Notes under the pieces: model-generated
The model's input: only the letters and a program-made list of their open reading frames with translations
Told to the model about the DNA's origin: nothing
Databases searched by the model: none
NCBI GenBank assembly: GCA_963817895.1
Contig: CAWFQB010000001.1
Span: forward strand, 224,001 to 288,000
Reading direction: 5' to 3'
Source of the DNA: an uncultured Chthonomonadaceae bacterium
GTDB taxonomy: Bacteria; Armatimonadota; Chthonomonadetes; Chthonomonadales; Chthonomonadaceae
DNA length: 64,000 bases
Position numbers and translations under genes: made by a program
Part shown: piece after piece, positions 5,588 to 64,000 of the stretch
Position numbering within the stretch: position 1 is the stretch's first letter
Layout of the letters: the number at the start of each line of letters is the position of its first letter

Positions 5588-7672
5588 TTATGTCAGTTGA
5601 AACGCCGGGGAGGTGGACGCCGCAATTAGAGTTGGCACATCATTATTGCCTTCGCGCATAGTGGCGTAGTTGTAAAGCTGGTGAATGATCTGGTTGACGC
5701 CGTAGCCGCTCGGCAGCAGAATGAAAGGCTTGTTCTGCGCCCGCATCCATTCGCGGCCCTTTTCGGTCATTTCATGGCTGGCAAAGTTCTTCACGACGAT
5801 GAGAATGTCGGCTCGGTTGATGTCGCCCTGAAACTTGCCTGCCCGGTCGCTCTTCTTGCTGTTCGGCCACTTCACTTCGGCGCAGCCAAGCTGTTTTTCC
5901 AACTCCTCGCACACGCGCTGGCGCGGCACGCCGCCGAGTATCAGCAGTTTGTGGCCCTCCACGTACAGCGACGCGACCTGCCGGTAGTTCTCCATCTGGC
6001 TGTCGGCAGGCTCGTCTTCCTCCTCAATGCCCGCTTCTTCCTCCGCGCTCTTTTCGGGCGGGTCCAATCCCTTGCGCTTGCGCTCGGTTACGATGGCGTC
6101 CAAAAATTTGCGATACTTCGCCAGATTTTCCAGCAGCAACGGCCCGATGTCCAGCAGCGCGCTCCGCACCTGCAAATGGGTGGGCGGCACTCCCGCCGCA
6201 ATGCACTCGTCCAGCAGTTGCGCCAGTTCCAGTTTTTGCTTGTCCAGCGTGAATTTGGAAAGCGCCTGCGTTTTGCGCTGAACACACCATTCCAGCACCC
6301 CCTCGATAGCTGCCGCTTTACGCGCTTCTTTGGCCTTGCGCTCCAGATTGGCGACGTAAACGCGCTGCGTGTTTTGCAGCAGGGAGGGGAGCTGCGCGGC
6401 GATACTCTCCCGTTCGTTCCATGCCATATCAGGGTTCATGGCGGTAAGATAGCCTTCGGTGTCGGCTGCGGCGCGAAGGTTCAGGTACAAATCCGTTTGC
6501 AGCCGATCCTTGCTGTCGAACTCCTCCAGTATGCAAAACAAGCGCTGCTGCACGGCGGCAATGGCGTTGAGCAGCGACCAGCGGGTTCCGCTTTCCAGCG
6601 CGTCTTTGTGTTCCATGTACCACTCATACGCGGCCTGCGCCTCGCCAGCCGCGCCGTACAAACCCGCCAGTTCCGCCCAGTCCTCTTCAGAGAGTTGCGC
6701 GACCACATTGCTCCAGAAGGTGGATTCAAACGGCAGGCACGGCGCGTTGTCGCCCGCATACCCCCGCGCCAGTTCCATGCGTTCGCGTAGTCCGCCGATT
6801 GCCCCTCGCATCTCCTTGCCCACGCCCTGCTGATTGGCAAGGGTATTCAAACGGCCCAATTCACAGGCGAGGGCGCGGGTTTGCAGGCAGCGGGGACGAT
6901 GCAGGCCGCCTTCTGACCGTCTCAAACTCTCCCGGTCAATTGCCTGCCAGCGCGTTTCTATCGCGTCCAGTTCGGCGTTGAGAATTGCCACCCGCGCATC
7001 GCGTTCCTCCTCGGAAAGCGGCGCAGGTTCGATGGGGGCAGGGGGAACCGGGGCGGCAACAGGGGTGGTTTCAACGGCGACTTTAATCTCGGCAACGGGC
7101 GCGTCTTCAAATTGTGGTTTGGCAGATGACTCTTCTGCCGCGTTGATGTCTGCCTCAACGATTGTATCTTTACGGCTGGTTTCTATCAAAGCGGAAATCT
7201 GATTGGTTTCCAGTTCAGGCAAAAGGAGGTCGTTGCGGGCTTCCTCAATGGTGAGTGAAACGTCTTGCGGGGAGGGGACGGTTGGCAGTAAATTCTCGAG
7301 TGGCGAAGAATCGGGTAGCTGGAAAGTGGGCGATTCCGATAGCGCATGTTTGAACGTGACGGACTCGGCGGCAGGGGAATTGACGACGGCAAAGGCGTGG
7401 GGCAGTTCCGCTATCAGCAACAGCCGCTGCGTAAACTGCTGCAACACGGCTTCCAGTTCCAGAATGATTTCCGCGTCGGCATCCGCTTTCGCCGCGTCTA
7501 ATTCTGTCGTGACCAGCGCGATTGCCGTTTCTAAGCGTTCCCGTTCGGCGCGGGTAAACTTCCGATGCTCCCGGCGTTCGCGCACTTCTTGCAAATAGGT
7601 TTTCAGGGCGTCGTTCGACTCGAAGATACTGCTGCTGTTGGACTGGCTGACAACGGTTGGGTTCAGGGCCAT
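5588..7672 (-). CDS. Large helical protein with C-terminal DUF2325-like domain
   Basis: C-terminal LLILGG...ADILIVVKNFASHEM...PFILLPSGYG matches the DUF2325 pattern; acidic, Pro-rich linker. Confidence 0.7.
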   Translation of the reverse strand: MALNPTVVSQSNSSSIFESNDALKTYLQEVRERREHRKFTRAERERLETAIALVTTELDAAKADADAEIILELEAVLQQFTQRLLLIAELPHAFAVVNSPAAESVTFKHALSESPTFQLPDSSPLENLLPTVPSPQDVSLTIEEARNDLLLPELETNQISALIETSRKDTIVEADINAAEESSAKPQFEDAPVAEIKVAVETTPVAAPVPPAPIEPAPLSEEERDARVAILNAELDAIETRWQAIDRESLRRSEGGLHRPRCLQTRALACELGRLNTLANQQGVGKEMRGAIGGLRERMELARGYAGDNAPCLPFESTFWSNVVAQLSEEDWAELAGLYGAAGEAQAAYEWYMEHKDALESGTRWSLLNAIAAVQQRLFCILEEFDSKDRLQTDLYLNLRAAADTEGYLTAMNPDMAWNERESIAAQLPSLLQNTQRVYVANLERKAKEARKAAAIEGVLEWCVQRKTQALSKFTLDKQKLELAQLLDECIAAGVPPTHLQVRSALLDIGPLLLENLAKYRKFLDAIVTERKRKGLDPPEKSAEEEAGIEEEDEPADSQMENYRQVASLYVEGHKLLILGGVPRQRVCEELEKQLGCAEVKWPNSKKSDRAGKFQGDINRADILIVVKNFASHEMTEKGREWMRAQNKPFILLPSGYGVNQIIHQLYNYATMREGNNDVPTLIAASTSPAFQLT

Positions 7673-10513: not shown

Positions 10514-11917
10514 ATGCTGATAGAATTCAGTGTTGAAAATTTTCGCTCCATACGCGAACATGTGACACTTAGCATGATTGCCGCTAAAATCCGGTCGGGT
10601 AATGCGCAACTGGATACCGACAACTTGATTCGGGTAAGTGATAAGTTATCTCTGCTGCGCTCCTCGGTGATTTATGGCGCAAATGCAAGCGGCAAGAGCA
10701 ACATATTCAAAGCAATGAATTTTATGCGGCAATTCATTCGAAATTCCGCGCGTTTGCAGGATGAAGACACCATTCCTGTCGAACCGTTTCTTTTCGATAG
10801 TGTTGCGGCTGCCGGTCCCTCCACTTTCGAGGCTGTCTTTTTACTGGAAGGCTTGCAGTACCGATACGGCTTTTCGGTGACGACAAAACAAGTTGTAAAA
10901 GAATGGCTTTTTTATACGCCGACAATCCGCGAGGTTCCGCTGTTTACGCGAGACGAAGAGGGCATTGAGATAAGTGACCGCTTTCGGCAGGGCCGGGGGC
11001 TGGAAGAACTTAATCTGGACAATAAACTTTTTCTCTCAGTGGTTGCTCAGTTCAAAAAGGGCGGAACTGCCAAGCGCATACGCGATTGGTTTCTAACCTC
11101 TTGTCGCACCCTCAACACCGTGGAGGATAAAGGATACCTGCCCTATACGATGCAATGTATAGAACAGGGAACTTACCGCGAACAAATCGAAAACATTGTT
11201 CGTCGTCTCGACCTCGATATTACTGGCCTATCTGTTGGCGAAATCCCTACGCCTGCGTCTGTCGCGCGCCTACAGGAGTTGCTGGCAAATGAAGCTGCGA
11301 GTAATGACAAAGACTCGCTCGTGTTGCTCCCAGATGTCCCGCAAAATCGCGTGTGGCGAGAATTGCGCACCCGCCATGCAATCCGAAACTCTGATGGAAG
11401 GATTGAAGAGGCTAAAACCTTTTCTGCCGGAGAAATCGAATCGGAGGGTACGCAGAAACTGATTGCGCTTACAGGGCCGCTTGTGGATGTTCTCACGCAT
11501 GGTTGGGTGTTGTTTATTGACGAGATTGATGCTCGTCTTCATCCACTCATCACGGCTGCGATTCTGCAGTTGTTCCACTCGCCGGAAACCAACCCTAAAA
11601 ATGCGCAGCTTATCTGCGCGACGCACGACACCAACTTGCTGGATCGCCATCGTTTGCGGCGGGATCAAATCTATTTTGTCGAAAAAGATCGTACTGCCGC
11701 CTCACATCTGTATTCTCTGGCAGAGTTCAAGCTGCTCTCCCCGAATGGATCGGGCAAGGCCATTCGCAATGACGAACACTTTGAAAAGAACTATATTCAG
11801 GGGCGTTACGGCGCAATCCCGTACTTAGGCGATCTGAGACGAGTGTTTATCGAAGAATTCCGGCGCGAAGAAAATGAGGCGGAAATTGACACCGGGCTGC
11901 AACAGGTGAGCGCATGA
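10514..11917 (+). CDS. AAA_21/RloA-type (AbiLi-like) ABC-family ATPase
   Basis: MLIEFSVENFRSI, Walker A GANASGKS, ESEGTQK signature, Walker B LFIDE, ATHD, YIQGRYGAIP. Confidence 0.9.
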   Translation: MLIEFSVENFRSIREHVTLSMIAAKIRSGNAQLDTDNLIRVSDKLSLLRSSVIYGANASGKSNIFKAMNFMRQFIRNSARLQDEDTIPVEPFLFDSVAAAGPSTFEAVFLLEGLQYRYGFSVTTKQVVKEWLFYTPTIREVPLFTRDEEGIEISDRFRQGRGLEELNLDNKLFLSVVAQFKKGGTAKRIRDWFLTSCRTLNTVEDKGYLPYTMQCIEQGTYREQIENIVRRLDLDITGLSVGEIPTPASVARLQELLANEAASNDKDSLVLLPDVPQNRVWRELRTRHAIRNSDGRIEEAKTFSAGEIESEGTQKLIALTGPLVDVLTHGWVLFIDEIDARLHPLITAAILQLFHSPETNPKNAQLICATHDTNLLDRHRLRRDQIYFVEKDRTAASHLYSLAEFKLLSPNGSGKAIRNDEHFEKNYIQGRYGAIPYLGDLRRVFIEEFRREENEAEIDTGLQQVSA

Positions 11918-17790: not shown

Positions 17791-19116
17791 ATGAGCGATG
17801 CGGAAGCGTTGAGCGATTATGTGGGGGCCGAAGATGGGGCGCTGCAATGGACATTGCAGAATATGTCCTCCCATGCGTATGCTACGGTTTACGAGTTCGC
17901 GCTCACATCGCAAATCTGGCAGGGGCGGGCGTGGACGCACCGACTGCAACTGTTCGCGCCTCATTCGCTTACGGCAATCGGCGCGGATGCCGTTCTGCTG
18001 TACATCACCACGCAGGGCGGAAATGCCGAAACCGAACTGGGCATACAGGCGGCGGCGGCTACGGGTATTGCCTGCGCGTTTCTGTACGACGTTCCCAATC
18101 AGCCGCTATTTGACGGACTGCTGGAGGACGCGCTGATTGCCCATACCCTCGTCCGCTATCTGGAAACGGGGGACGCGACATGGCCCCTGCTGTTTCCGAT
18201 GGTGAAAAGCGTGACACGGGCAATGGATGCCTTACAGGAATTCAGCCAGCAGGCGGCGAGTGGTTCATCGGGCGCAGCCCAACGAACGGCCACAGGACAG
18301 GCGGCAGACGGTCAAAATGCGGATTCGATAGTCGCTCCACTCGTACCCTTTACGCGCTTTCTGATTACAGGAGCCTCCAAGCGGGGCTGGACTTCGTGGC
18401 TGACCGCTGTTGCCGAAGCCCAATCGGGCCGCGTCGCCGCTATTCTGCCGATGGTGTACGACAACCTCAACCTTCTCGCGCAGATGCCACATCAGCGGGA
18501 AATCACGGGCGGATATAGCGCGTCCATCCACGACTACACGGAACTGGATTTGCAAACGCGAATGGCGACTCCCGAAGGCGCGCGATTGGCGCAGATGATT
18601 GACCCCTATACGTATCGCGACCGCCTGACACTGCCCAAACTGATTATCAATGGCGCGAACAACTCGTACTGGATGACGGACGCGCTCAACCTCTACTGGC
18701 CCGACCTGCCCGATCCCAAACACGTTTTGTATGTGCCGAATACGGGGCATTTTCTGGGCGAACCTTCCCGCGTGTATGCCACTCTGACGGCCTTCGTCCG
18801 CGCCATTGTGGCAGGCGACAACCTTCCCGCGCCTGTTCTAAACGTGACGGACATGGGAAATTTCGTTTCTCTAAACGCCGGAAACCTGACCGAAGATGTC
18901 CGTCTCTGGATTGCGTATTCCACAACGCGCGACTTTCGCGCCGCGCGTTGGAACTCGCCCAATCATATTCCACGCGACAAGTGGGAGGAGTGGCGGACCA
19001 GCCTTCGTAAACCCGCCGAAGGATTCATGGCGCTGTTCGGCGAATTCGGCTTTGTGTATGATGGTCTGCCCTATACCCTTTCCACGCCCATAAATATTTT
19101 CGCTTGTGCAACGTAA
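17791..19116 (+). CDS. PqaA-like (PhoPQ-activated pathogenicity-related) alpha/beta hydrolase
   Basis: TSQIWQG, EDALIAHT, WPLLFPMVKS, GASKRGWT, DPYTY, VPNTGH. Confidence 0.85.
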   Translation: MSDAEALSDYVGAEDGALQWTLQNMSSHAYATVYEFALTSQIWQGRAWTHRLQLFAPHSLTAIGADAVLLYITTQGGNAETELGIQAAAATGIACAFLYDVPNQPLFDGLLEDALIAHTLVRYLETGDATWPLLFPMVKSVTRAMDALQEFSQQAASGSSGAAQRTATGQAADGQNADSIVAPLVPFTRFLITGASKRGWTSWLTAVAEAQSGRVAAILPMVYDNLNLLAQMPHQREITGGYSASIHDYTELDLQTRMATPEGARLAQMIDPYTYRDRLTLPKLIINGANNSYWMTDALNLYWPDLPDPKHVLYVPNTGHFLGEPSRVYATLTAFVRAIVAGDNLPAPVLNVTDMGNFVSLNAGNLTEDVRLWIAYSTTRDFRAARWNSPNHIPRDKWEEWRTSLRKPAEGFMALFGEFGFVYDGLPYTLSTPINIFACAT

Positions 19117-55409: not shown

Positions 55410-55578
55410 TGTTCGTTGTGTGTTCCCCGTTTCCAAGCCTCTCTGTGTTTGTCGGAATCCTCTCCTCTTTTGCGATTGTGCCGGATTGTGGTAACATAAC
55501 AATATATAGCGCGTCCGTTGTTGTACTCGCCTTTGTTGTCGCTTCCTCCCATCCTCACCATTTTGCAAGGAGTTTCCG

Positions 55579-58188
55579 TTGAAGCCTTTTCCCATTCTGT
55601 TTTCGCGGGCCGGTTTTGCCGCGCTTGCCACCCTCGCCGGCCTGAGTTTGTCGGCTGCCACTACACGGGCGCAGGGGCAATTCGGCGGCAATCAGGGGGC
55701 GCGGCCCGCCCTCACCGCCCATTCGCCGCGCGTTCGTGATTTTCATGTTCGGCATTTGAAACTGATTTTTGACATCAACGCCAAAGACCATTCCGCGCAT
55801 GGCGTTGTCACGCACTACCTGATGCCCCTGCGCGACTCGCTTACAGACTGTTGTTCTGGACGCCCGCGACAACCTGAAAATCGAAGCCTGTAAAATTAAC
55901 GGCACGGATGTCACCTTCGCGCAGAAAGACAACCAACTTACGATTTCGCCCGTCACGCCGCTTGCCATGAATAAGGAAGTGGCGGTTGAAATCTCCTACA
56001 CCATGCCGTCTGCCAATTCGCGCACTGGCGGGGGCGCGAACGGCGCGGGCGGGTTTACGTGGATTGATCCCCGCGCCGCGCAGCCGACCCGCAAGGTCGG
56101 GTTCTGGACGCAGGGCGAAACCAATACCAACAGTTCATGGGTTCCCTGCTACGATTTCCCCAACGACAAATGCACCAGCGAAACCCATACTACCGTGCCG
56201 GAAGACTGGACCGTGATCGGCAACGGAGCGGAAACGCCGTCCACGCTCAATGCCGACGCGCATACCCGCACCTTCCACTGGACGATGAAGCAGCCCCACT
56301 CCACCTACCTGCTGTCGCTCGTCGGGCGGCGAAATGGACGTGCAAAAAGATACGTGGCGCGGCGTTCCCCTGTATTATGCCGTGCCCAAAGGCATGGGAA
56401 ACCTGATTCCCAACGCGTTCGGCAACACGCCCGATATGCTCAGTTGGTTTTCCGACAATCTGGGCGTCAAGTATCCCTGGCCCAAGTACGCGCAGTGCTG
56501 CCGTGTTCGATTTTCCCGGCGGCATGGAAAACGTCAGCGCGACCACGCTGGGCTCGTTCAGCCTGACCGACGCCCGCGCCGGCAAATTCCCCATGTCCAG
56601 CCTGACTTCGCACGAACTCGGCCACCAGTGGTTCGGCGATCTGGTGACGTGCAAGGATTGGGGCGACATCTGGCTCAATGAGAGTTTCGCCACGTTCTAT
56701 CGAGATGTTTTATATGGAGCATCTGAACGGCAAGGAGGCCTATGAGGCCGACGTGGAAAACTACACGCGCCAGTATCTGCCATCCGCGCGCGCGAGCCAA
56801 ACGCGCCCTCAGCACCAACATGTACGCCAGTTACGACGCCATGTTCGAGTCGGGCCATACCTATTCCAAGGGCGGCGTGATTCTGCACATGCTGCGCCGG
56901 GAACTGGGCGACAAAGCCTTTTTCGCCAGCCTGCATCGCTACCTCGAAAGCCTACGAGTACACAGCCGGTGGAAACCGGTGATCTGGAAAAATGCCATTT
57001 CGGAAGAGACCCATCGCGACATGAAGCCGTTCTTCGACCAGTGGGTGCGCAAACCCGGCCATCCGGTTCTGGACATGACATGGACGTATGACGAGGGGCG
57101 TAAAGAGGTCATAGCGACCGTCAAGCAGCTGCAAAACACGACGGACGGCACGCCCATTTACAACACGCCCCTGACGTTCGGACTGGCGCGGGGTATGGCT
57201 GAAAAACCGTCCGGCTTCAAGCAGGTCAGGACTGGCGGGGGAAAAGACCAGACGGGTTCGCAAACGGGCAGCGATATGCTGCAGCGGCAGCGCGTGGTTC
57301 TCAATCAGGCCACGCAGGAGTTCCATTTGCCCTGCGCCCAAAAGCCCGCCCTTGTGCTGCTGGACCCGGATCACGACATGCTCAAAGAGGTGCCGGACAC
57401 GCATCTGACCGACGCGGACATGGCTCTCCTGCTGCGCATCGCGCCCAACTCCACGGACCGGCGACTGGCGGCAAGCAAACTGGTGGGCGACAATCTGGAC
57501 GCGAGCAAAATCGCCCTGTTTACGGACGTTCTGAAAGCGGAACCGGGCGACGCGCTGGGCGCAACCCTGATTGACAGCCTGGGTACCGCCAAAAGCGAGG
57601 AACTGCGCCCCCTGTTCCACGCGGAAGCGCAGTCGAAATTGCCGCGCCGCCGCGCCGCCGCCCTCGCCGCGCTTGGACAATTGGCCCCGACGGATGAGGA
57701 TACGCGCCTGCTGCGGAGCGTCGCCCTCGAGCGATACGGAACCCTACGTCCGTTGTGAGCGGCGCGCTGACTCGGACTAAGCGGCGAACATCGCGAAGAA
57801 CATGGACGTGTTTCAGCATCAGATCACGCAGACCGGGTCGGGGGAAACGCTGGCTTCGGCAAGCGTGGACGCTCTGGCCGCCGCCAAAAGCGACGCGACG
57901 GTTCCCCTGCTCCTGCTCGCCATGAAGCCGGAACACAGCTCGTTCACGCGCATGAAAGCCGCTGGCGCGTTGGGAACATTCGCGCCCGGTGACGCGGAAG
58001 TCCACGACGCGCTGGTGGCGATGCTCAACGACCCGTTGTTCTTTGTGCAGAATGCCGCCATACGCGCCCTTGCCGCCCGCAAGGACAAAGGCGCGCTGGA
58101 CGCCATTCGCGCCGTCGCCGCCAACGCCAAAAACCCCAACACGCAGGAAGCGGCGAAAACAGCGATAGAGCAGATAGAGGCGCAGTAA
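55579..58188 (+). CDS. M1 family aminopeptidase with C-terminal HEAT repeats (multiple apparent frameshifts)
   Basis: WTQGE, PCYD.PNDK, YPWPKY, GGMEN, HELGHQWFGD, WLNES, YSKGG..LHMLR; HEAT repeats. Confidence 0.88.
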
Positions 58189-58305
58189 GATACGAGATAC
58201 GAGATACGAGATATGAGATACGAGTAGATGATTATTGCTTTCCTTTTCAGTAGAAGAAAACAAAGCAGGAGTCACTCGTATCTCGTATCTCTTATCTCTT
58301 ATCTA
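58186..58305. repeat. Inverted repeat of AGATACG heptamers between convergent stop codons
   Basis: taagatacgagatacgagatacgagatatgagatacgag ... ctcgtatctcgtatctcttatctcttatcta. Confidence 0.85.
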
Positions 58306-58467
58306 CTTCTTCTGTCCTGCCGGGGGAGCGCCCGTCGTTTCCGTGCCGGCGTGAGCGGGCGGGGGAACAAGCGCGGCGAGACTGACAAGCAGGCAGGCCG
58401 TCAGGCAAAGTCGCGTCCACAAAGAGCGTGGGGGCAGGGGACGCGACCGGATGTTAAGCGTTATCAC
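58303..58467 (-). CDS. Putative small secreted peptide
   Basis: GGAGG RBS + GTG; signal-like segment ending AHA; 14-aa tail GTETTGAPPAGQKK. Confidence 0.4.
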   Translation of the reverse strand: MITLNIRSRPLPPRSLWTRLCLTACLLVSLAALVPPPAHAGTETTGAPPAGQKK

Positions 58468-59055
58468 GGGAAACAAACCTCCAGAAACCCGACTGTCGCG
58501 CTGAAAACACCGGGCTGTCTTTTTATGCACGTTTGTAAACTACGGCTTGCAGCCTGCATCGTGACAATGGCTGCCGCCTGATTTTCCTTGCCTCTTCTGC
58601 TTTTCTCCCTGTTCATGCCGCTTCCCACTCCACGCGAAATCTCGCGCTTCCTCCTCTTCCATATCCGCCGCAAGCCTCTGGCCGATGGCGAAAATTTCCC
58701 ACCTCTTTATTCCGAGCAGGTCACGCCGGAAATGTTTATACATTCCGCGCCTGCCTGCTGTTGTATCGTAATGAGAGAATTGTATCAAAGTGGTTCAATT
58801 AAATATTTTTGTGGTATAGGTATGGCATAGCTTCAAGTACAGGTGTATGTATGTGAGGGGAAATTTGGTTAAAAAACGGACGGAATAATAGTCAGAAAAA
58901 TTTTCCAAAAAAGTATTTGCTTTTATATTGATGATATGCTATCATTCCTGCACGGATTGTTGCGCCCGAACTCATCGCGTAGTACGGATGGCGTGAGGCA
59001 AAACCGGAGTTCTCCGCAGATGAGAACCCATTCCCCGTAAACAAAGGAGACATGA

Positions 59056-61004
59056 ATGCCCGAGTACCTTGCCCCTGGTTTGTTCATCGAGGAGATTGAC
59101 AGCGGCAGCAAGCCCATTGAGGGCGTCGGAACCAATACCGCCGCGTTCATCGGCTACGCGAAAAGCGGCGACTTCAATAAACCGATCTTCATCTCCAACT
59201 GGACTCAGTTTTGCAGCGAATTCGGTGAGGAAGAGAACGCGATCACAGAAGCGTTGTGCCGATTTCTAGGCATGTCCGTTGCTGCAGTGCGCAACAAAAA
59301 AGCAAAGTCGCGCAAAGGATGGATGGAGTATTGTACAATCCGTTCACTCTGAGGCGGTGCGCAGCAAGAAAACGGAAACCAAAGAGTTTCAACACGTTCA
59401 TTGAGAATTTGAACGTGCCGGTGAAGAACTCGCCCTACATCAAGAACAGCTATCTTGCGCATGCCGTGCGCGGCTTCTACGACAATGGGGGCGGGCGCGC
59501 CTACATTGTTCGCATACCCCGGCCCGAAGATGTGACGGCTATCAAGGCGAAATACGCGAATGGCGCAGCGGCCGATGCGGGCCACCCCGCCGTAGCCGCG
59601 AGCAAGACGTATGGCGCGCTGACGTTTACGTCGAGATTGATTGGCGCGGCAGGCAACGGCACCAAAGTGGACATCGTTCACACGGACAAAGAGAACAAGC
59701 CGCTGAAGGACAACGAGTTCCGCATCATCATCAAGCAGGGCGACCGGACGGACGAGTTGCCGGACAGAGGCGCCTTCACCGCGTTGGAACAGGCGGTGGA
59801 AAGGGTAAACACAAAATCCACGCTGGTTCAAATGGAAGTGCAAGCCGGGGTTGATGTGAAGACCGCGCCCCGCCCGGAGATATTCTCCAGCCTTCTTGAG
59901 GCGGGAACAAACGCGGCTGCTAATATGAGCCGCGCTGCGCAGGCCGGCGCCGCCGCCGCTTCCGGGCCTTCGCTGTCGCGCGCGTTGATGGATTTGACGC
60001 CTGATGTCTGGGACGGGGATGAAGACAATGGCCTAGGACTGGGCAGCATGTATGCCGTTGAAGACGTAGATATGATCTGCTTTCCCGACCTGATGAACGG
60101 TCTCTACTCCCGTGATGAGTACAAGGTGGAGGTAGATGGCGGCAGAAGAACCGAGACGCGCTTCTCCGAAGAGCAGTGTCTGCTTGACAGCCTGGACGGA
60201 CGGCGCGCGGCAATCCTGGGTGTGCAGAAGGCGCTGGTAGATTACTGCGAACGCGCCGGCAACCGCATGTGCATTCTCGACCCCATTCCCGAACTCAAAC
60301 CACAGGAGATGGATGATCTGATCTACAAAGAGATCAAGCAACTTCGGATGCTCCAAAGGGCAGGCGGCCATCTACTATCCCTGGATCAAAATCGCCGACC
60401 CGGTGAACAAGGGACGAGCAGATACTGGTTCCGCCGTGCGGCCATATGGCGGGCGTGTGCGCGCGCGTGGCTCTGGAGCGCGGCGTTCACAAAGCCCCGG
60501 CCAACGAAGTCCTGATGGGCGCGGTGGACTTGGAGCGGAAGTCACGAAAGGCGAGCAGGAGAAACTCAACCCGAACGGCATCAACTGCATCCGCGCGTTT
60601 CCCGGCAGGGGCATCCGCATCTGGGGCGCGCGCACTCTGGCCACCGTCGGCAACCCGTCGTGGAAGTACGTCAACGTGCGTCGCCTGTTCAACTACCTTG
60701 AAAAGTCCATGGAGCGCAACCTGCAGTGGGTGGTTTTCGAGCCGAACGACGAAGACCTGTGGGGCCGCGTGCGCCGCACCATCTCCGCGTTCCTGTATAC
60801 GGAATGGAGCGAGGGCAAGCTGTTCGGAACCACGCCCGGCCGAAGCGTTCTACGTGAAGTGCGACGCGGAGACCAATCCGCAGGAGATGATTGACCTGGG
60901 CCGCCTGTACTGTCGAGGTCGGCATCAATCCGGTCAAGCCCGCCGAGTTTGTCATCATCCGCATGGGCCAGTGGTCGGGCGGCGGCAGTATGAGCGAACA
61001 GTAA
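59056..61004 (+). CDS. Contractile tail sheath protein of an eCIS (several apparent frameshifts)
   Basis: MPEYLAPGLFIEE...IEGVGT.TAAFIG, AVRGFYDNGG, YYPW, HKAPAN, LNP.GINCIR.FPGRGIRIWGART, YVNVRRL, FEPN, PVKPAEF. Confidence 0.93.
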
Positions 61005-61009
61005 ACAGA

Positions 61010-61110
61010 GGGTGTTCGGTATTCGGTATTGGGCGTTCAGAGACTCAAGTTGCCGCGATTTACGCAGATGCGCAGAAGCTGAACACCCGGTACCCAACCC
61101 GACACCCGAT
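61010..61110. repeat. Degenerate heptamer inverted repeat between sheath and tube
   Basis: ggtgttcggtattcggtattgggcgttcag ... ctgaacacccggtacccaacccgacacc. Confidence 0.6.
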
Positions 61111-61163
61111 TGCTGCAACACCGAAATGCCTGCATAGGCATTTGCAACGAAAGGAACGCCATC

Positions 61164-61599
61164 ATGGCTGAAGCAGTAGGCGCATTGCGCTGGTATCTGG
61201 AAATTGACGGCATCACCGAAGGCATTTTCAAAGAGGTGTCGGGGCTGGACTCGGAGAACGAAGTGATCGAACATCGCGCTTCGGGCAAAGGGCAACCTGG
61301 TCGTGCACAAAATCCCCGGCGCGCTCAAGTGGTCGAACATCAGCCTGCCGGCGCGGAATCACCGACGACCGCAAGCTGCACGACTGGCGCAAAAAGATCG
61401 AAGACGGGCAGATCGAGGCCAACCGCAAGAACGGCACGCTCACCTGCTACGACCCGACCGGCAAGGCCGTCGCCAAGTACACCTTCAAAAAGGGCTGGCC
61501 GTGCAAGTGCAAAGGGCCCGTCTGTGGACGCCTCGCAAAAACGAAATCGCCATCGAAGAACTCGAAATCGCCCACGAAGGGCTGGAGCGCCAGCAGTAG
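61164..61599 (+). CDS. T4 gp19-like tail tube protein (frameshifted)
   Basis: LEIDGI..G.FKEVSGL.SE.EVIEH, KIPG.LKWSNI, DW.K, RKNG, GWP.K, IEELEIAHEG. Confidence 0.9.
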
Positions 61600-61618
61600 A
61601 CGTGACGCGCAATAAGGC

Positions 61619-61986
61619 ATGAGCGCGTCAACTATGAATAAATCCGCCCGCAACAGCGGTCTGCAAACCGAGTACGACTTCACTCTGCCGCGCGGCTATA
61701 TCGGCGCCGATGGCACACTGCACAAAAAAGGCAAGATGCGCCTGGCGACGGCCATGGACGAGATCGCCCCGCTGCGTGACCCGCGCGTCCGCGCCAACCA
61801 GGCGTATCTGGTCATTATCCTGCTGGCGCGCGTCATCACGCAACTGGGAACCCTGGAAGTGATCGATACCGGAGTCGTCGAGAACATGTTCTCCGCCGAC
61901 CTGGCTTATCTGCAGGACCTGTATCGGCGCATCAACGAGACTGGAAGCGACCGACGCGGAGGAGGACGGGACAGCTGGGGGAATAG
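61619..61986 (+). CDS. CIS tail assembly chaperone-like protein
   Basis: TEYDFTLPRGY...DGTLH..G.MRLATA.DEI....DPRV..N.AYL..ILL.RVI...D.AYLQ..Y.RIN; probable true end LGE-TAG at 61986. Confidence 0.8.
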
Positions 61987-62144
61987 CGCGCTACCCCTCA
62001 GAGGCCTTATATGAGGAGGTAGCCTACATCGCCTACCACTTCCACTGGCCGCTCGACGACATCCTGAACCTGGAACACGCCGAGCGGCACAAGTGGATCG
62101 AAGAGATCAGCAAGATCAACAAACGCTTGACAGAGGGCGGATAG
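61983..62144 (+). CDS. DUF6760-like protein lacking a canonical start codon
   Basis: YPSEALYEEVAYIAYHFHWPLDDILNLEHAERHKWIEEISKIN; absent from the ORF track. Confidence 0.82.
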   Translation: MARYPSEALYEEVAYIAYHFHWPLDDILNLEHAERHKWIEEISKINKRLTEGG

Positions 62145-62286
62145 CGACGCGGCAGTTTTTGCGGAGCGCCGGTCTCTGTTAAGCATTATCTATTTAGCGG
62201 GAAGCGCTTCTGTCTACCGCTAAATTTTCCTTCAAATACTCTGTACTCGACACGCAACGCTTAAGGGAAAGGGGGTGAAAAAGTAA

Positions 62287-62751
62287 ATGAGACAGACGGT
62301 CAACAACCGAACTCTTAGTAATTCAGGCAAAACAGCCCTGCTGACGCATGAAGGCTTTAGCAGTCATTTGTACCATGATACATCAGGCCATTGCACCATT
62401 GGGTACGGGCATCTGGTGCATTATGGCAGCTGTAACGGCAGTGAACCGGGCGAGTTCAAAACCGGCATTAATAAAGACCGCGCCGCGCAGTTGTTCAGCG
62501 CGAAAGTGAAAGAGTTCGAGCAGGCCGTGAATACACTGACAAGTGTTCCGCTTTCCCAGAACCAATTCGACGCGCTGGTAAGTTTTGCCTACAATGTCGG
62601 GGTTCCCGCGTTCCAGAATTCTACGCTGTTGCGCGAACTAAATCAGGGGCATTACGCGTCCGTCCCGGGTGAAATGGCGAAATGGGTCCATTCAGGCGGC
62701 AAGCGTACCAAAGGGCTGGTCACGCGGCACGCGGACGAAGCGGCTCTCTTT
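62287..62751 (+). CDS. GH24 (phage-type) lysozyme domain
   Basis: HEG...Y.D..G..TIGYGH (E-x8-D-x5-T), NQFDALVSFAYNVG, STLL..LN, GLV.R..E..LF. Confidence 0.9.
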
Positions 62752-64000
62752 ATACGGGTCAGTGAAAACACTCCTGTTAGCCGGGGCTGTGGGCGGCGCC
62801 GCTGCCGCATTGGGAAAGCAACTTCAGGAGCAGCATGGAACCGCGAAAGCAGGCAAAACCACGCCCGGACTGGCCGCGCAGCAGTTCGCGCAGGCAAAGA
62901 TGCAGGGTTATGGCGCAGTGGACGCGGATCAGGCGGAGGCGCTGACGCAGCGCCTGAGCGGGCATGTGCATTACCACTGGGGCGGTAAAATCCGACCGAC
63001 AACGAGCGTGGATGCCATCCTCGGAGACCCGAAAAAATATGGCTCCATTGACTGCTCGGGCTATGTGCGCTGGCTGGTCTACCAAACTTCGGGCGGCGCG
63101 CTCCAGTTGGGCGAAGGCTCGATACAGATCGGCAAAGATTTAGAGCGGCTGGCGCAAAAAGGCGTGGTGACGAAGTGCGGCTATGAGGATGCGGGCAAGC
63201 AGGACGGTGTGATGCGAATCGCCGGCTTCGATCATGGCGGCGACCATCGGCACGTATGGGGCGTGGTAAATGGCGAAACGATGGAGAGTCGCGGCGGTCA
63301 GAACCATATTGGCGTAAGCCGCCAGCCGTGGAGAGTTTATGCCCGCTCGAAAGCCTGGTGCTATGCTCTGCCTACGAGCCACTCCCACGCATTGCAAGCC
63401 GCCCATGACCCCGCGCTTCCTCACGCGGCGCATGCGAACATAGGACAGGCCGGACACGGCGCGGCACACCTGGCGCAGCTGAAAATTCAGCAGGCGCATG
63501 TCGCGGGACACATTGATACCGATGAGGCTATCGCTCTGACCGCACGGCTGCGGGGGCATGTCGGCTACGGCTGGGGCAGCAAACTGAGTCCCAATACCGA
63601 CATCGAAACAATATTAAAAAATCCACAAAAATACAAGCAGATTGACTGCTCCGGGTATGTTACCTGGCTGGTGCGGCAGACCTCGGGGGGCAGCATTCCC
63701 CTGAGCGGTGGCTCCATCCAGATCGGAAACCAGCTGCATGGATTGGCGCAAAAAGGCGTGGTGACGCAATGCAGCTATGCGGATGCGGGCAAGCGCGATG
63801 GCGTGATGCGAATTGCCGGGTTTAATCATGGCGGCAGGCATCAGCATGTATGGGCCGTTGTGAATGGCGAGACGCTGGAGAGTCACGGCGGCAAGGGCGT
63901 GGATCGGCTGCCCTGGGCGCACTACGCCCCTCGTACGCAGTGGTGTTACGCCCTGCCGTCTCACTCCCACGCCGGAGGCGACACGGACGGACCCGCCTTG
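62750..64000 (+). CDS. Two tandem NlpC/P60-like (papain-fold) domains, open to window end; probably fused to the lysozyme
   Basis: Manual translation: HYHWGGK...IDCSGYVRWLV...HRHVW....ETMES and GYGWGSK...IDCSGYVTWLV...HQHVW....ETLES; no stop codon. Confidence 0.8.

Follow-up and report, generated by a model that had tools for sequence, protein, structure and literature searches.

A GH24 lysozyme and tandem NlpC/P60-fold repeats as the candidate front of a giant DUF4157 protein in a contractile injection locus of an uncultured Chthonomonadaceae bacterium

Most characterised extracellular contractile injection systems (eCIS) aim at eukaryotes. The locus described here lies at the end of a 64,000-nucleotide stretch of DNA (the window) from an uncultured Chthonomonadaceae bacterium, and it raises the question whether peptidoglycan hydrolases encoded inside such a locus are cargo directed against other bacteria. 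The genome (G000) comprises 7.48 Mb in 14 contigs and is 81% complete; the window corresponds to G000:C1:224001-288000. A sequence-only reading had proposed that a GH24 lysozyme and two NlpC/P60-like peptidase repeats, encoded from position 62287 to the window end behind tail genes, form one multi-enzyme protein attacking both the glycan and the peptide parts of the bacterial wall. The contig was read past the window end as L003 (C1:282001-302000; window coordinate = L003 coordinate + 58000) and L004 (the next 20 kb), and positions beyond the window are given as L003 or window-equivalent coordinates. On balance we favour the interpretation that the lysozyme and the two repeats are the front of one eCIS_core (DUF4157) protein of about 2,020 residues, which would be loaded into the particle, ejected, and cut the peptidoglycan of target bacteria; that the target is bacterial, we only infer.

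The lysozyme was readily identified. The open reading frame (ORF) 62287..62988 matched Pfam Phage_lysozyme (PF00959) with an E value of 2.6e-40 and 138.1 bits (cut-off 22.3), residues 21-151 aligning with positions 3-125 of the 125-position profile. Its best solved relative was 6et6_A (E 1.6e-25), and it matched the endolysins of PHROG 7 with E 4.6e-41. The catalytic set read from the translation is E22, D31 and T37, with spacings of 9 and 6; in T4 lysozyme these residues are numbered E11, D20 and T26. The first 20 residues contain no hydrophobic stretch, in agreement with the earlier view of a GH24 muramidase with an intact triad and no signal peptide. Past residue ~153 the frame turns into an Arg-rich, junk-like tail of 80 residues, which ends at a stop at 62988. 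Multi-domain relatives exist: in P0151, P0202 and P0215, GH24 is joined to C39_2, and in P0225 (376 residues) DUF4157 is joined to GH24. The lysozyme domains of these four proteins are 49-54% identical to the present one, and P0151 combines C39_2 with two GH24 copies by way of His/Gly/Thr/Pro linkers. They differ from the present protein in having neither the NlpC/P60-like repeats nor SLT, and in P0225 DUF4157 comes first and GH24 after it, unlike the order proposed here.

The repeats are encoded in the frame shifted by +1 relative to the lysozyme. Inside the window this frame has no stop between 62669 and the end, a span of 444 codons (412 when counted from GTG 62762), and the run of T residues at which it had been said to take over is the TTT at 62749-62751. 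The two repeats are 65% identical, and Y-x-WG, DCSG, HVW and ES occur in both, the DCSG motifs starting at 63050 and 63644, 594 nucleotides apart. A profile built from the two sequences found 224 proteins (E <= 0.001) among 1.84 billion representatives, nearly all of them single-domain proteins of 140-320 residues, and in a 72-sequence alignment D62-C63-S64, H129, E140 and G149 were invariant. Because of these relatives and of the invariant D-C-S, H and E, the repeats are more than a chance resemblance. The third catalytic residue usual in NlpC/P60 peptidases is His or a polar residue; the third invariant residue here is Glu (E140).

Family assignment by sequence was marginal. The two-repeat protein matched Pfam NlpC_P60 (PF00877) with 26.5-26.8 bits (cut-off 23), with only positions 3-29 of the 105-position profile aligned. 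Of 33 relatives scanned, 14 matched PF00877, 13 of them below the cut-off (16.6-20.9 bits) and one, P0023, at it (23.1 bits). No PHROG family matched the repeats, and weak matches to tail proteins were obtained for three relatives only. Against PDB sequences the profile gave 16 weak matches (E 0.01-0.2), and all of the named ones were NlpC/P60 proteins (among them SagA, Tse1, Spr/MepS, LytE, CwlO and RipB-type); the repeat DCSG aligned with that of SagA 6b8c, and the match of the repeat profile to Tse1 had E 0.025. Structure prediction was clearer. The AlphaFold2 model of repeat 1, made with a 72-row alignment, had a pLDDT of 93.9 and a pTM of 0.89, and was compared with 48,161 solved chains by VIA-align. 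The best matches were 7v6s_A (Z 14.1, root-mean-square deviation 2.6, 121 residues aligned), MepS 8xud_I (Z 14.0) and Acd24020 (Z 13.5), followed by LytE, SagA and CwlO, and the 30 best entries (Z 8-14) were all NlpC/P60 or CHAP wall hydrolases. Neighbours in the ESM Atlas were unnamed, largely phage clusters together with NlpC_P60, Amidase_5 and CHAP clusters. By their fold, their invariant Cys-His-Glu set and their marginal Pfam matches, the repeats belong to a divergent branch of the NlpC/P60 fold that is linked to phages, and hydrolysis of peptidoglycan stem peptides is predicted for them. The NlpC/P60 identity proposed from sequence alone thus held with respect to the fold and the conserved Cys and His. 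Among proteins of 341-1087 residues no two-repeat relative other than the protein itself was found, and in 40 related genomes only the SLT part of the protein (see below) had matches, apart from one 71-residue piece in G006.

The +1 frame does not end with the window. It runs on as L003:4669-6627 from 62669 to a stop at window-equivalent 64627 (652 codons) and contains an SLT domain (PF01464) at residues 486-592 (E 3.2e-28, 98.1 bits, cut-off 21.3), with the Glu-Ser motif in IQIESRGN. Further frames follow at L003 6554-7189, 6939-7400, 7243-7875 and 7673-10354. By coordinate arithmetic, the six successive frame pieces between window position 62287 and window-equivalent 68354 are each +1 to the previous one and overlap their neighbours, and a single +1 step inside each overlap gives an unbroken 2,020 codons from L003 4287 to 10354. 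The four later junctions lie at window-equivalent 64480-64625, 64939-65189, 65243-65400 and ~65630. A Cys-bearing piece (L003:6665-7060) resembled Peptidase_C39_2 (PF13529) weakly, with E 0.015 and 16.3 bits (cut-off 24), the domain being cut by a frame break; the presumed His block GHIMRLQGVGESG in the next frame aligned with the C39_2 part of P0151 (E 0.015 in a tiny database). The last piece starts inside eCIS_core (DUF4157), which scored 30 bits (cut-off 22) on the cut piece and has the HExxH motif HELTH, and it ends in Gly/Ala-rich hydrophobic segments. The eCIS_core proteins of 13 relatives aligned at L003 7417-8158. With SLT, a weak C39-like domain and DUF4157 in the continuation of the reading, the whole unit probably comprises about 2,020 residues and not about 570. 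The earlier proposal of one multi-enzyme protein therefore needs correction in its extent, while the fusion across the +1 break that it implied fits the type of error found in this assembly.

That error type could be characterised in neighbouring genes. Upstream of the island, the aminopeptidase N gene is one frame of 893 codons in the congener G002 and six frame pieces in G000, each +1 to the last. Alignment of the two genes (80% nucleotide identity) revealed 11 single extra bases in G000 between 55846 and 57770, one missing base at 55539, probably before the start codon, and one 2-base gap. The sheath proteins of seven related loci aligned in frames 1, 3, 1, 2 and 3, which amounts to three clear +1 steps and one ambiguous step, and the relatives' tube proteins aligned at 61164-61292 (frame 3) and 61283-61525 (frame 2), with one ambiguous step. 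The eCIS_core domain is itself split by +1 at L003 ~7630, where the proteins of 9 of 13 relatives align on both sides, and VgrG is split by +1 at L003 ~18490-18510 (window-equivalent ~76490-76510) according to two relatives' proteins. In all, 16 breaks were verified, every one fitting +1 (one extra base or, less simply, two missing bases), and no -1 break. In contrast to this clustering near the locus, 8.6 kb of window 30-47 kb compared with G002 had no extra base; thus, the errors are local and patchy and, at every place open to checking, fit one extra base. Extra-base patches were seen at window 55846-61350 and at window-equivalent 64480-65630 and ~76490-76510. Gene calls in the error patch, and perhaps also the completeness figure of 81%, are affected. 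Counts of overlapping ORF pairs over the whole genome (1559 at +1 and 1138 at -1) were tried as a gauge of error bias and discarded as too noisy, owing to shadow ORFs. From these comparisons we infer that the five breaks of the candidate giant gene are assembly artefacts.

The continuity of the gene was judged against related loci. In a phylum sample of 401 genomes the second tube protein of this locus (see below) was found in 25, G000 included (E <= 1e-10). Fifteen of those related loci were examined, and ORFs were listed for 13, L085 and L086 (from the genus of L078) being left out. Sheath, tube, the 131-residue protein, an eCIS_core protein and the second tube are present in all 15. A single ORF of 1,822-2,583 residues occupies the slot between the chaperone-like genes and the second tube in 8 of the 13, with eCIS_core at residues 686-1482; in the present protein it would lie near residue 1,100. 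Two of these giant ORFs come from the single-contig genomes G231 and G166. In four other loci the eCIS_core protein has 285-814 residues. Since one giant eCIS_core protein fills the slot in 8 of 13 loci and the breaks fit assembly errors, we read the six pieces as one cargo protein of about 2,020 residues. The cargo position suggested earlier agrees with this comparison: behind the chaperone-like gene and DUF6760, the gene stands at the place that the eCIS_core protein has in related loci. Six of the eight giants (L073, L075, L076, L079, L080 and L081) share a module of ~200-250 residues, with a motif like VVYVNGMNN...PVVGVYN, at varied offsets before eCIS_core (residue ~60 to ~760); in L080 it has a weak alpha/beta-hydrolase match in Pfam. 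Enzyme modules ahead of DUF4157 are therefore usual in this lineage, and the varied offsets look like domain shuffling within a payload region. The region ahead of DUF4157 is thus a modular, variable and enzyme-bearing part in this lineage, and the hydrolases of G000 are found in the same place. In the corresponding slot of the G306 locus (L074, G306:C3:58500-71500) a Pvc16-like cap, an AAA ATPase, a 753-residue protein with an SsdA_C deaminase-toxin domain and a 980-residue eCIS_core protein are encoded.

The junction between lysozyme and repeats bears on whether the hydrolases belong to one protein. Removal of any one base in 62730-62824 gives read-through to codon 779, and the possibility that an extra base masks a stop of the lysozyme was dismissed, as no single-base removal in that range produces a nearby stop. 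Segment 62762..62866 would link two domains in a fused protein, whereas in a separate second protein it would form a signal-like N-terminus. Its hydrophobic stretch VKTLLLAGAVGGAAAAL resembles the linker after repeat 2 (score 38, shuffle p 0.046). GTG 62762 lacks the AGGAG-like site that most operon genes have upstream (among them the sheath, tube, lysozyme, LysM-tube and PAAR genes), and the giant ORFs of the relatives start at this place. The step itself is +1, like the 16 verified breaks, and GH24 is also known from multi-domain proteins, with His/Gly/Pro linkers behind it in P0151 and joined to DUF4157 in P0225. If there were no error at all, the lysozyme would carry the 80-residue Arg-rich tail and overlap the next gene by 227 nucleotides. 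Taking these comparisons together, fusion of lysozyme and repeats is the reasonably probable arrangement. An N-terminal motif shared by the relatives, like IGAAGRGAAALA, was considered as a marker of the true start and set aside: a profile of 12 relatives' N-termini had no significant match in G000 (best E 0.22, elsewhere), and with a 22-column weight matrix LLAGAVGGAAAALGKQ ranked only fourth (4.3 bits, compared with 26-40 in relatives), behind two pre-repeat linkers, which is evidence neither way. The best matches to that motif in the locus were the pre-repeat helices AGKTTPGLAAQQFAQAK (62849-62914) and ANIGQAGHGAAHLAQLK (63434-63499), both weak (7.0 and 9.4 bits against the same 26-40).

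If the six pieces are one protein, its order would be GH24, two NlpC/P60 domains, SLT, a C39-like peptidase, DUF4157 and a Gly/Ala-rich hydrophobic tail. By analogy, it might be packaged like Cgo1 and Cgo2 of AlgoCIS or Tme of Streptomyces and then ejected, whereupon the GH24 muramidase and the SLT transglycosylase would cut the glycan strands of the target wall, and the NlpC/P60 domains, perhaps with the C39-like one, its stem peptides.

Several observations weigh against this interpretation. Both the artefactual status of the breaks and the continuity of the giant gene were deduced by comparing sequences within a noisy assembly, and this limits the claim. The junction between the SLT piece and the next one is compatible with a gene boundary (stop at L003 6627, ATG at 6665), and the 1.9-kb frame of repeats and SLT contains no break, compared with one per 160-400 nucleotides in nearby genes. 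GH24, the repeats, SLT and the two following pieces, including the C39-like part, had no tblastn match (E <= 1e-4) in the 15 related loci. The repeat family occurs in 42 of the 401 genomes (E <= 1e-5), including 19 of the 29 genomes of one family, but in surroundings of another kind: tblastn with 16 other queries from this locus had no match in 20 repeat-family neighbourhoods, and Pfam search of 104 ORFs from nine such neighbourhoods detected no contractile injection family, but Mu-like portal and head, terminase, endonuclease VII and amidase genes. In the five genomes that have both the repeat family and an injection locus, the two are on different contigs or megabases apart. The linkage to injection loci in relatives that the cargo proposal implied was thus not borne out. 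The layout is unfavourable as well, because in the known DUF4157 cargoes, to the extent that the available texts describe them, the front is disordered and the effector lies behind DUF4157, the reverse of the order proposed here. Finally, no immunity gene was recognised at the locus. As a separate observation, single-domain Cys-His-Glu members of the family adjoin a Mu-like portal gene in L053 (G284), which also has a gpT head gene, and in L056 (G231); the family-f29 members perhaps belong to a conserved Mu-like element or a remnant resembling a gene-transfer agent.

The junction also yields arguments for separate genes, which might constitute a lysis module that frees the particles from the producer cell. 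The first would encode a cytoplasmic GH24 endolysin of 158 residues with its stop at TGA 62763. The second, with GTG 62762 as start codon, would encode a protein that has a signal-like or signal-arrest-release (SAR)-like Gly/Ala-rich N-terminus and carries the two NlpC/P60 domains together with SLT. In the -1 frame TGA 62763-62765 overlaps GTG 62762-62764, and adding one base before 62764 (62730-62763) creates a stop at codon 159, with start and stop overlapping as GTGA in the manner typical of coupled genes. The break is isolated and falls exactly at the domain edge, single-domain solved relatives of the lysozyme end three residues past ALF, and the residues after the junction are hydrophobic, which also tells against one continuous protein. 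Phage lysins are among the relatives of both the lysozyme and the repeat family, and a hairpin and a good ribosome site separate the lysozyme from DUF6760. The partly available text of Geller 2021 (PMC8213781) states that lysis frees the particles and that toxins might contribute. A release module would need one missing base, whereas not one of the 16 verified breaks fits such a change; the tail and overlap of the error-free reading, the lack of an AGGAG-like site before the GTG and the likeness of the hydrophobic stretch to an internal linker (see above) also speak against it. Its absence from all 15 related loci argues that it is not a conserved release function, and no holin was recognised, though no systematic holin search was made. 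We consider separate lysis genes unlikely. Rather less probable still is that the protein is ejected as a penetration tool and not as a toxin, its hydrolases opening the target wall locally for the spike, the hydrophobic tail or other effectors in the manner of tape-measure and tail-tip lysins. The gene does follow a chaperone-like pair, and in P2-type tails this is the position of the tape measure. DUF6760 has a weak Pfam likeness (E 0.013, below the cut-off) to phage P2 GpE, the small tail-assembly chaperone ahead of the tape measure in P2. Lytic domains occur in ejected or tip proteins of contractile tails, and the repeat model matched those of the diffocin baseplate 8v3w_H (Z 12.5), the phi812 baseplate 9euf_A (Z 9.3) and 8ej5_A (Z 6.5); a hydrolase motif is reportedly present in the TM4 tape measure as well. 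The hydrolases of phage tape measures, tails and diffocins serve the entry of a genome or a pore-former; here there is no capsid, and the domains stand ahead of DUF4157. The C-terminal Gly/Ala-rich hydrophobic segments recall the membrane helices predicted for Tme in the part of that study at hand (PMC11126660). Wall hydrolases are nevertheless missing from this protein in related loci, so that the machine does not generally require them. The front region varies like polymorphic payloads, and a separate conserved protein of 1,226 residues may be the tape measure.

A last alternative takes the frame breaks as real mutations and the island as decaying and non-functional, with the hydrolase frames as remnants. 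Sheath, tube, eCIS_core, VgrG and the Pvc16-like cap are all broken, the genome is only 81% complete, and at the DNA level the injection locus is missing from both congeners, synteny ending near 58524. However, the adjoining housekeeping aminopeptidase, with its 11 single extra bases, keeps 80% nucleotide identity and protein likeness in every piece, all clear breaks have the same direction, and frames of 1.9, 2.7 and 3.7 kb remain open, so that we regard decay as very improbable. The preferred interpretation remains one particle-loaded DUF4157 protein with the hydrolases at its front.

Feature coordinates at the locus are collected in Table 1.

Table 1. Positions of features in the window, with the evidence for each
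Feature	Position	Strand	Evidence or remark
Tail sheath gene, five frame pieces in the assembly	59056..61001	+	Pfam Phage_sheath_1C E 1.4e-11, Phage_sheath_1
Sheath alignment blocks	59056-59337, 59361-60320, 60322-60846, 60836-60916, 60912-61001	+	7 relatives
First tube gene, gp19 type, frame-broken	61164..61600	+	two pieces, weak Phage_T4_gp19 match
Conserved 131-residue protein, tail-chaperone position	61619..62014	+	72-81% identity to the counterpart in 15/15 related loci
DUF6760 small protein	61965..62146	+	Pfam PF20546 E 9.1e-18
Hairpin UUUAGCGGG...ACCGCUAAA, 9-bp stem, then UUUU	62192..62225	+	fold of 62140-62290, between DUF6760 and lysozyme start
GH24 muramidase domain, E22/D31/T37	62287..62745	+	PF00959, PDB, PHROG; ATG preceded by aagggaaagggggtg
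Frame junction: lysozyme frame loses homology, +1 frame takes over	62745..62765	+	three-frame view
Hydrophobic Ala/Gly stretch VKTLLLAGAVGGAAAAL and Gln/Ala/His-rich linker	62762..62866	+	Kyte-Doolittle mean 1.68 over 17 residues
NlpC/P60-fold repeat 1	62867..63391	+	Cys of DCSG 63053-63055
His/Ala/Pro-rich inter-repeat linker	63392..63457	+	translation
NlpC/P60-fold repeat 2	63458..63973	+	Cys of DCSG 63647-63649; same invariant residues as repeat 1
Start of linker to SLT domain	63974..64000	+	frame runs on to window-equivalent 64627

The gene order is sheath, tube, chaperone-like protein, DUF6760, the hydrolase/eCIS_core region, second tube, a long conserved protein, LysM tube protein, VgrG, PAAR and baseplate. 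The upstream order of sheath, tube, chaperone and DUF6760 had been recognised correctly, with the qualification that the protein in the chaperone position (61619..62014) has no match in Pfam. By Pfam a gene set of eCIS type is present: sheath, tube, gp19 tube, CIS_tube, Phage_base_V (VgrG), PAAR, Baseplate_J, Tail_P2_I and Pvc16_N. The cap-like Pvc16_N gene lies at G000:C1:327158-327683 in two frames on the minus strand, opposite to and about 15 kb beyond the baseplate genes. Of the components that the sequence-only reading had named for the DNA past the window, baseplate and VgrG spike genes were thus present. A search with the G306 ATPase as query detected only distant AAA genes, at C1:637 kb and on C3 (E 3e-13 and 7e-10), and no AAA+ ATPase gene close to the locus.

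The hairpin that separates DUF6760 from the lysozyme might act as a terminator or attenuator and mark off an inserted module. Folding of 62140-62290 was no better than that of shuffled sequences (z 0.69), the hairpin was not in the list of the terminator scan, and promoter and terminator sites in 58200-64000 were no more numerous than in shuffles.

Between the second tube and the LysM tube protein lies the gene of the Ser/Pro/Gly/Ala-rich protein of 1,226 residues (L003:13044-16724, window-equivalent 71044-74724), the centre of which is 44-55% identical to proteins of 1,245 and 899 residues at the same place in G231 and G166. Two small genes of 189 and 162 residues (L003:10361-10930 and 10927-11415, window-equivalent 68361-69415), joined by a TTGA overlap, follow the giant gene and precede the next conserved small ORF. 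They matched no Pfam family, gave no useful PDB match and had no counterpart in the 15 related loci; immunity, adaptor or additional payload functions are candidate roles for them. The ORF that follows (L003:11434-11736, window-equivalent 69434-69736; 100 residues) is homologous to the C-terminal ~70 residues of four relatives' short eCIS_core proteins (L077, L083, L084 and L087; 42-57% identity), and loci with giant eCIS_core proteins have a separate ORF of 101-112 residues at the same place. This conserved C-terminal piece therefore occurs either as part of the eCIS_core protein or as an independent gene.

The candidate protein was compared with known systems. DUF4157 marks eCIS toxins, as stated in the accessible part of Geller 2021 (PMC8213781). 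In AlgoCIS the DUF4157 proteins Cgo1 and Cgo2 are cargo of the tube lumen and require their disordered front part for loading (bioRxiv 10.64898/2026.05.27.728243, consulted in excerpt). The present protein is like them in being a DUF4157 protein encoded inside an extracellular contractile injection locus. Cgo1 and Cgo2 have 498 and 1,228 residues with the effector behind DUF4157 according to that excerpt, whereas here ~1,100 residues of folded hydrolases, the predicted cargo, would precede it, and a folded domain begins 20 residues from the N-terminus in place of the disordered front. This reversal is the chief difference from the cargoes described so far. Tme (BN159_7576) of Streptomyces davawensis is a DUF4157 protein of 2,247 residues that co-purifies with spike proteins; in the portion of the publication at hand, 'tme-like' genes have predicted membrane helices and a conserved place near the tube initiator and VgrG (PMC11126660). 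The candidate would resemble Tme in its length of about 2,020 residues and its Gly/Ala-rich hydrophobic tail. It would differ from Tme, as far as that portion describes it, in that DUF4157 is central and that the enzyme domains in front are wall hydrolases.

Wall-hydrolase toxins of eCIS have been predicted before, and the domain types found here are ordinary. EAT10 of Pseudoalteromonas luteoviolacea, a peptidoglycan hydrolase, was 10^4 times more toxic in the periplasm of E. coli than in the cytoplasm, and EAT10 and eCIS genes with pesticin domains were, as here, read as antibacterial payload (PMC8213781, in part). In the same partial text EAT10 is single-function and has no association with DUF4157; here three to four kinds of hydrolase in five copies would be joined to DUF4157. 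Peptidoglycan-binding domains also occur in predicted eCIS toxins (PMC11297309, available text). An array of several hydrolases ahead of DUF4157 was not described in the portions of the eCIS and DUF4157 literature searched, of which the supplementary tables may list such proteins. The amidases of type VI secretion systems, Tse1/Tae1 (3vpi_A, Z 10.8), Tae3 (4hz9_A, Z 8.2) and Tae4 (4jur_A, Z 6.0), share the papain-like fold of NlpC/P60 and CHAP with the repeats. Unlike those effectors, the repeats are better matched by housekeeping and phage NlpC/P60 proteins (Z 12-14), have no type VI context, and have Glu as the third conserved residue; nor was an adjacent immunity gene recognised, the two small downstream ORFs being of no known family.

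The antibacterial use of eCIS rests on few toxins tested in E. coli (Geller 2021, PMC8213781, as far as accessible). The present locus bears on the open questions of which cells extracellular injection particles attack and how their cargo is chosen and loaded, and it provides a testable family of Cys-His-Glu peptidases of the NlpC/P60 fold with 224 representatives, mostly phage-linked. A bolder proposal, which we put forward only tentatively and do not expect to hold in full, is that a whole wall-demolition kit is carried on one ejected protein of about 2,020 residues ahead of DUF4157, that the front end is a swappable payload bay, and that the particle is a dedicated bacteria-killing weapon. 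If this is true, the front bay would hold wall hydrolases here and alpha/beta-hydrolase-like modules in six relatives, and in this lineage the loading signals would have to be in or behind DUF4157. Should the preferred interpretation hold, a chain of peptidoglycan hydrolases as the variable part of a DUF4157 protein would be a clear genomic sign of a particle directed against bacteria. Folded enzyme modules ahead of DUF4157 would also mean that payload can be placed on either side of it, which would bear on the engineering of such particles for protein delivery.

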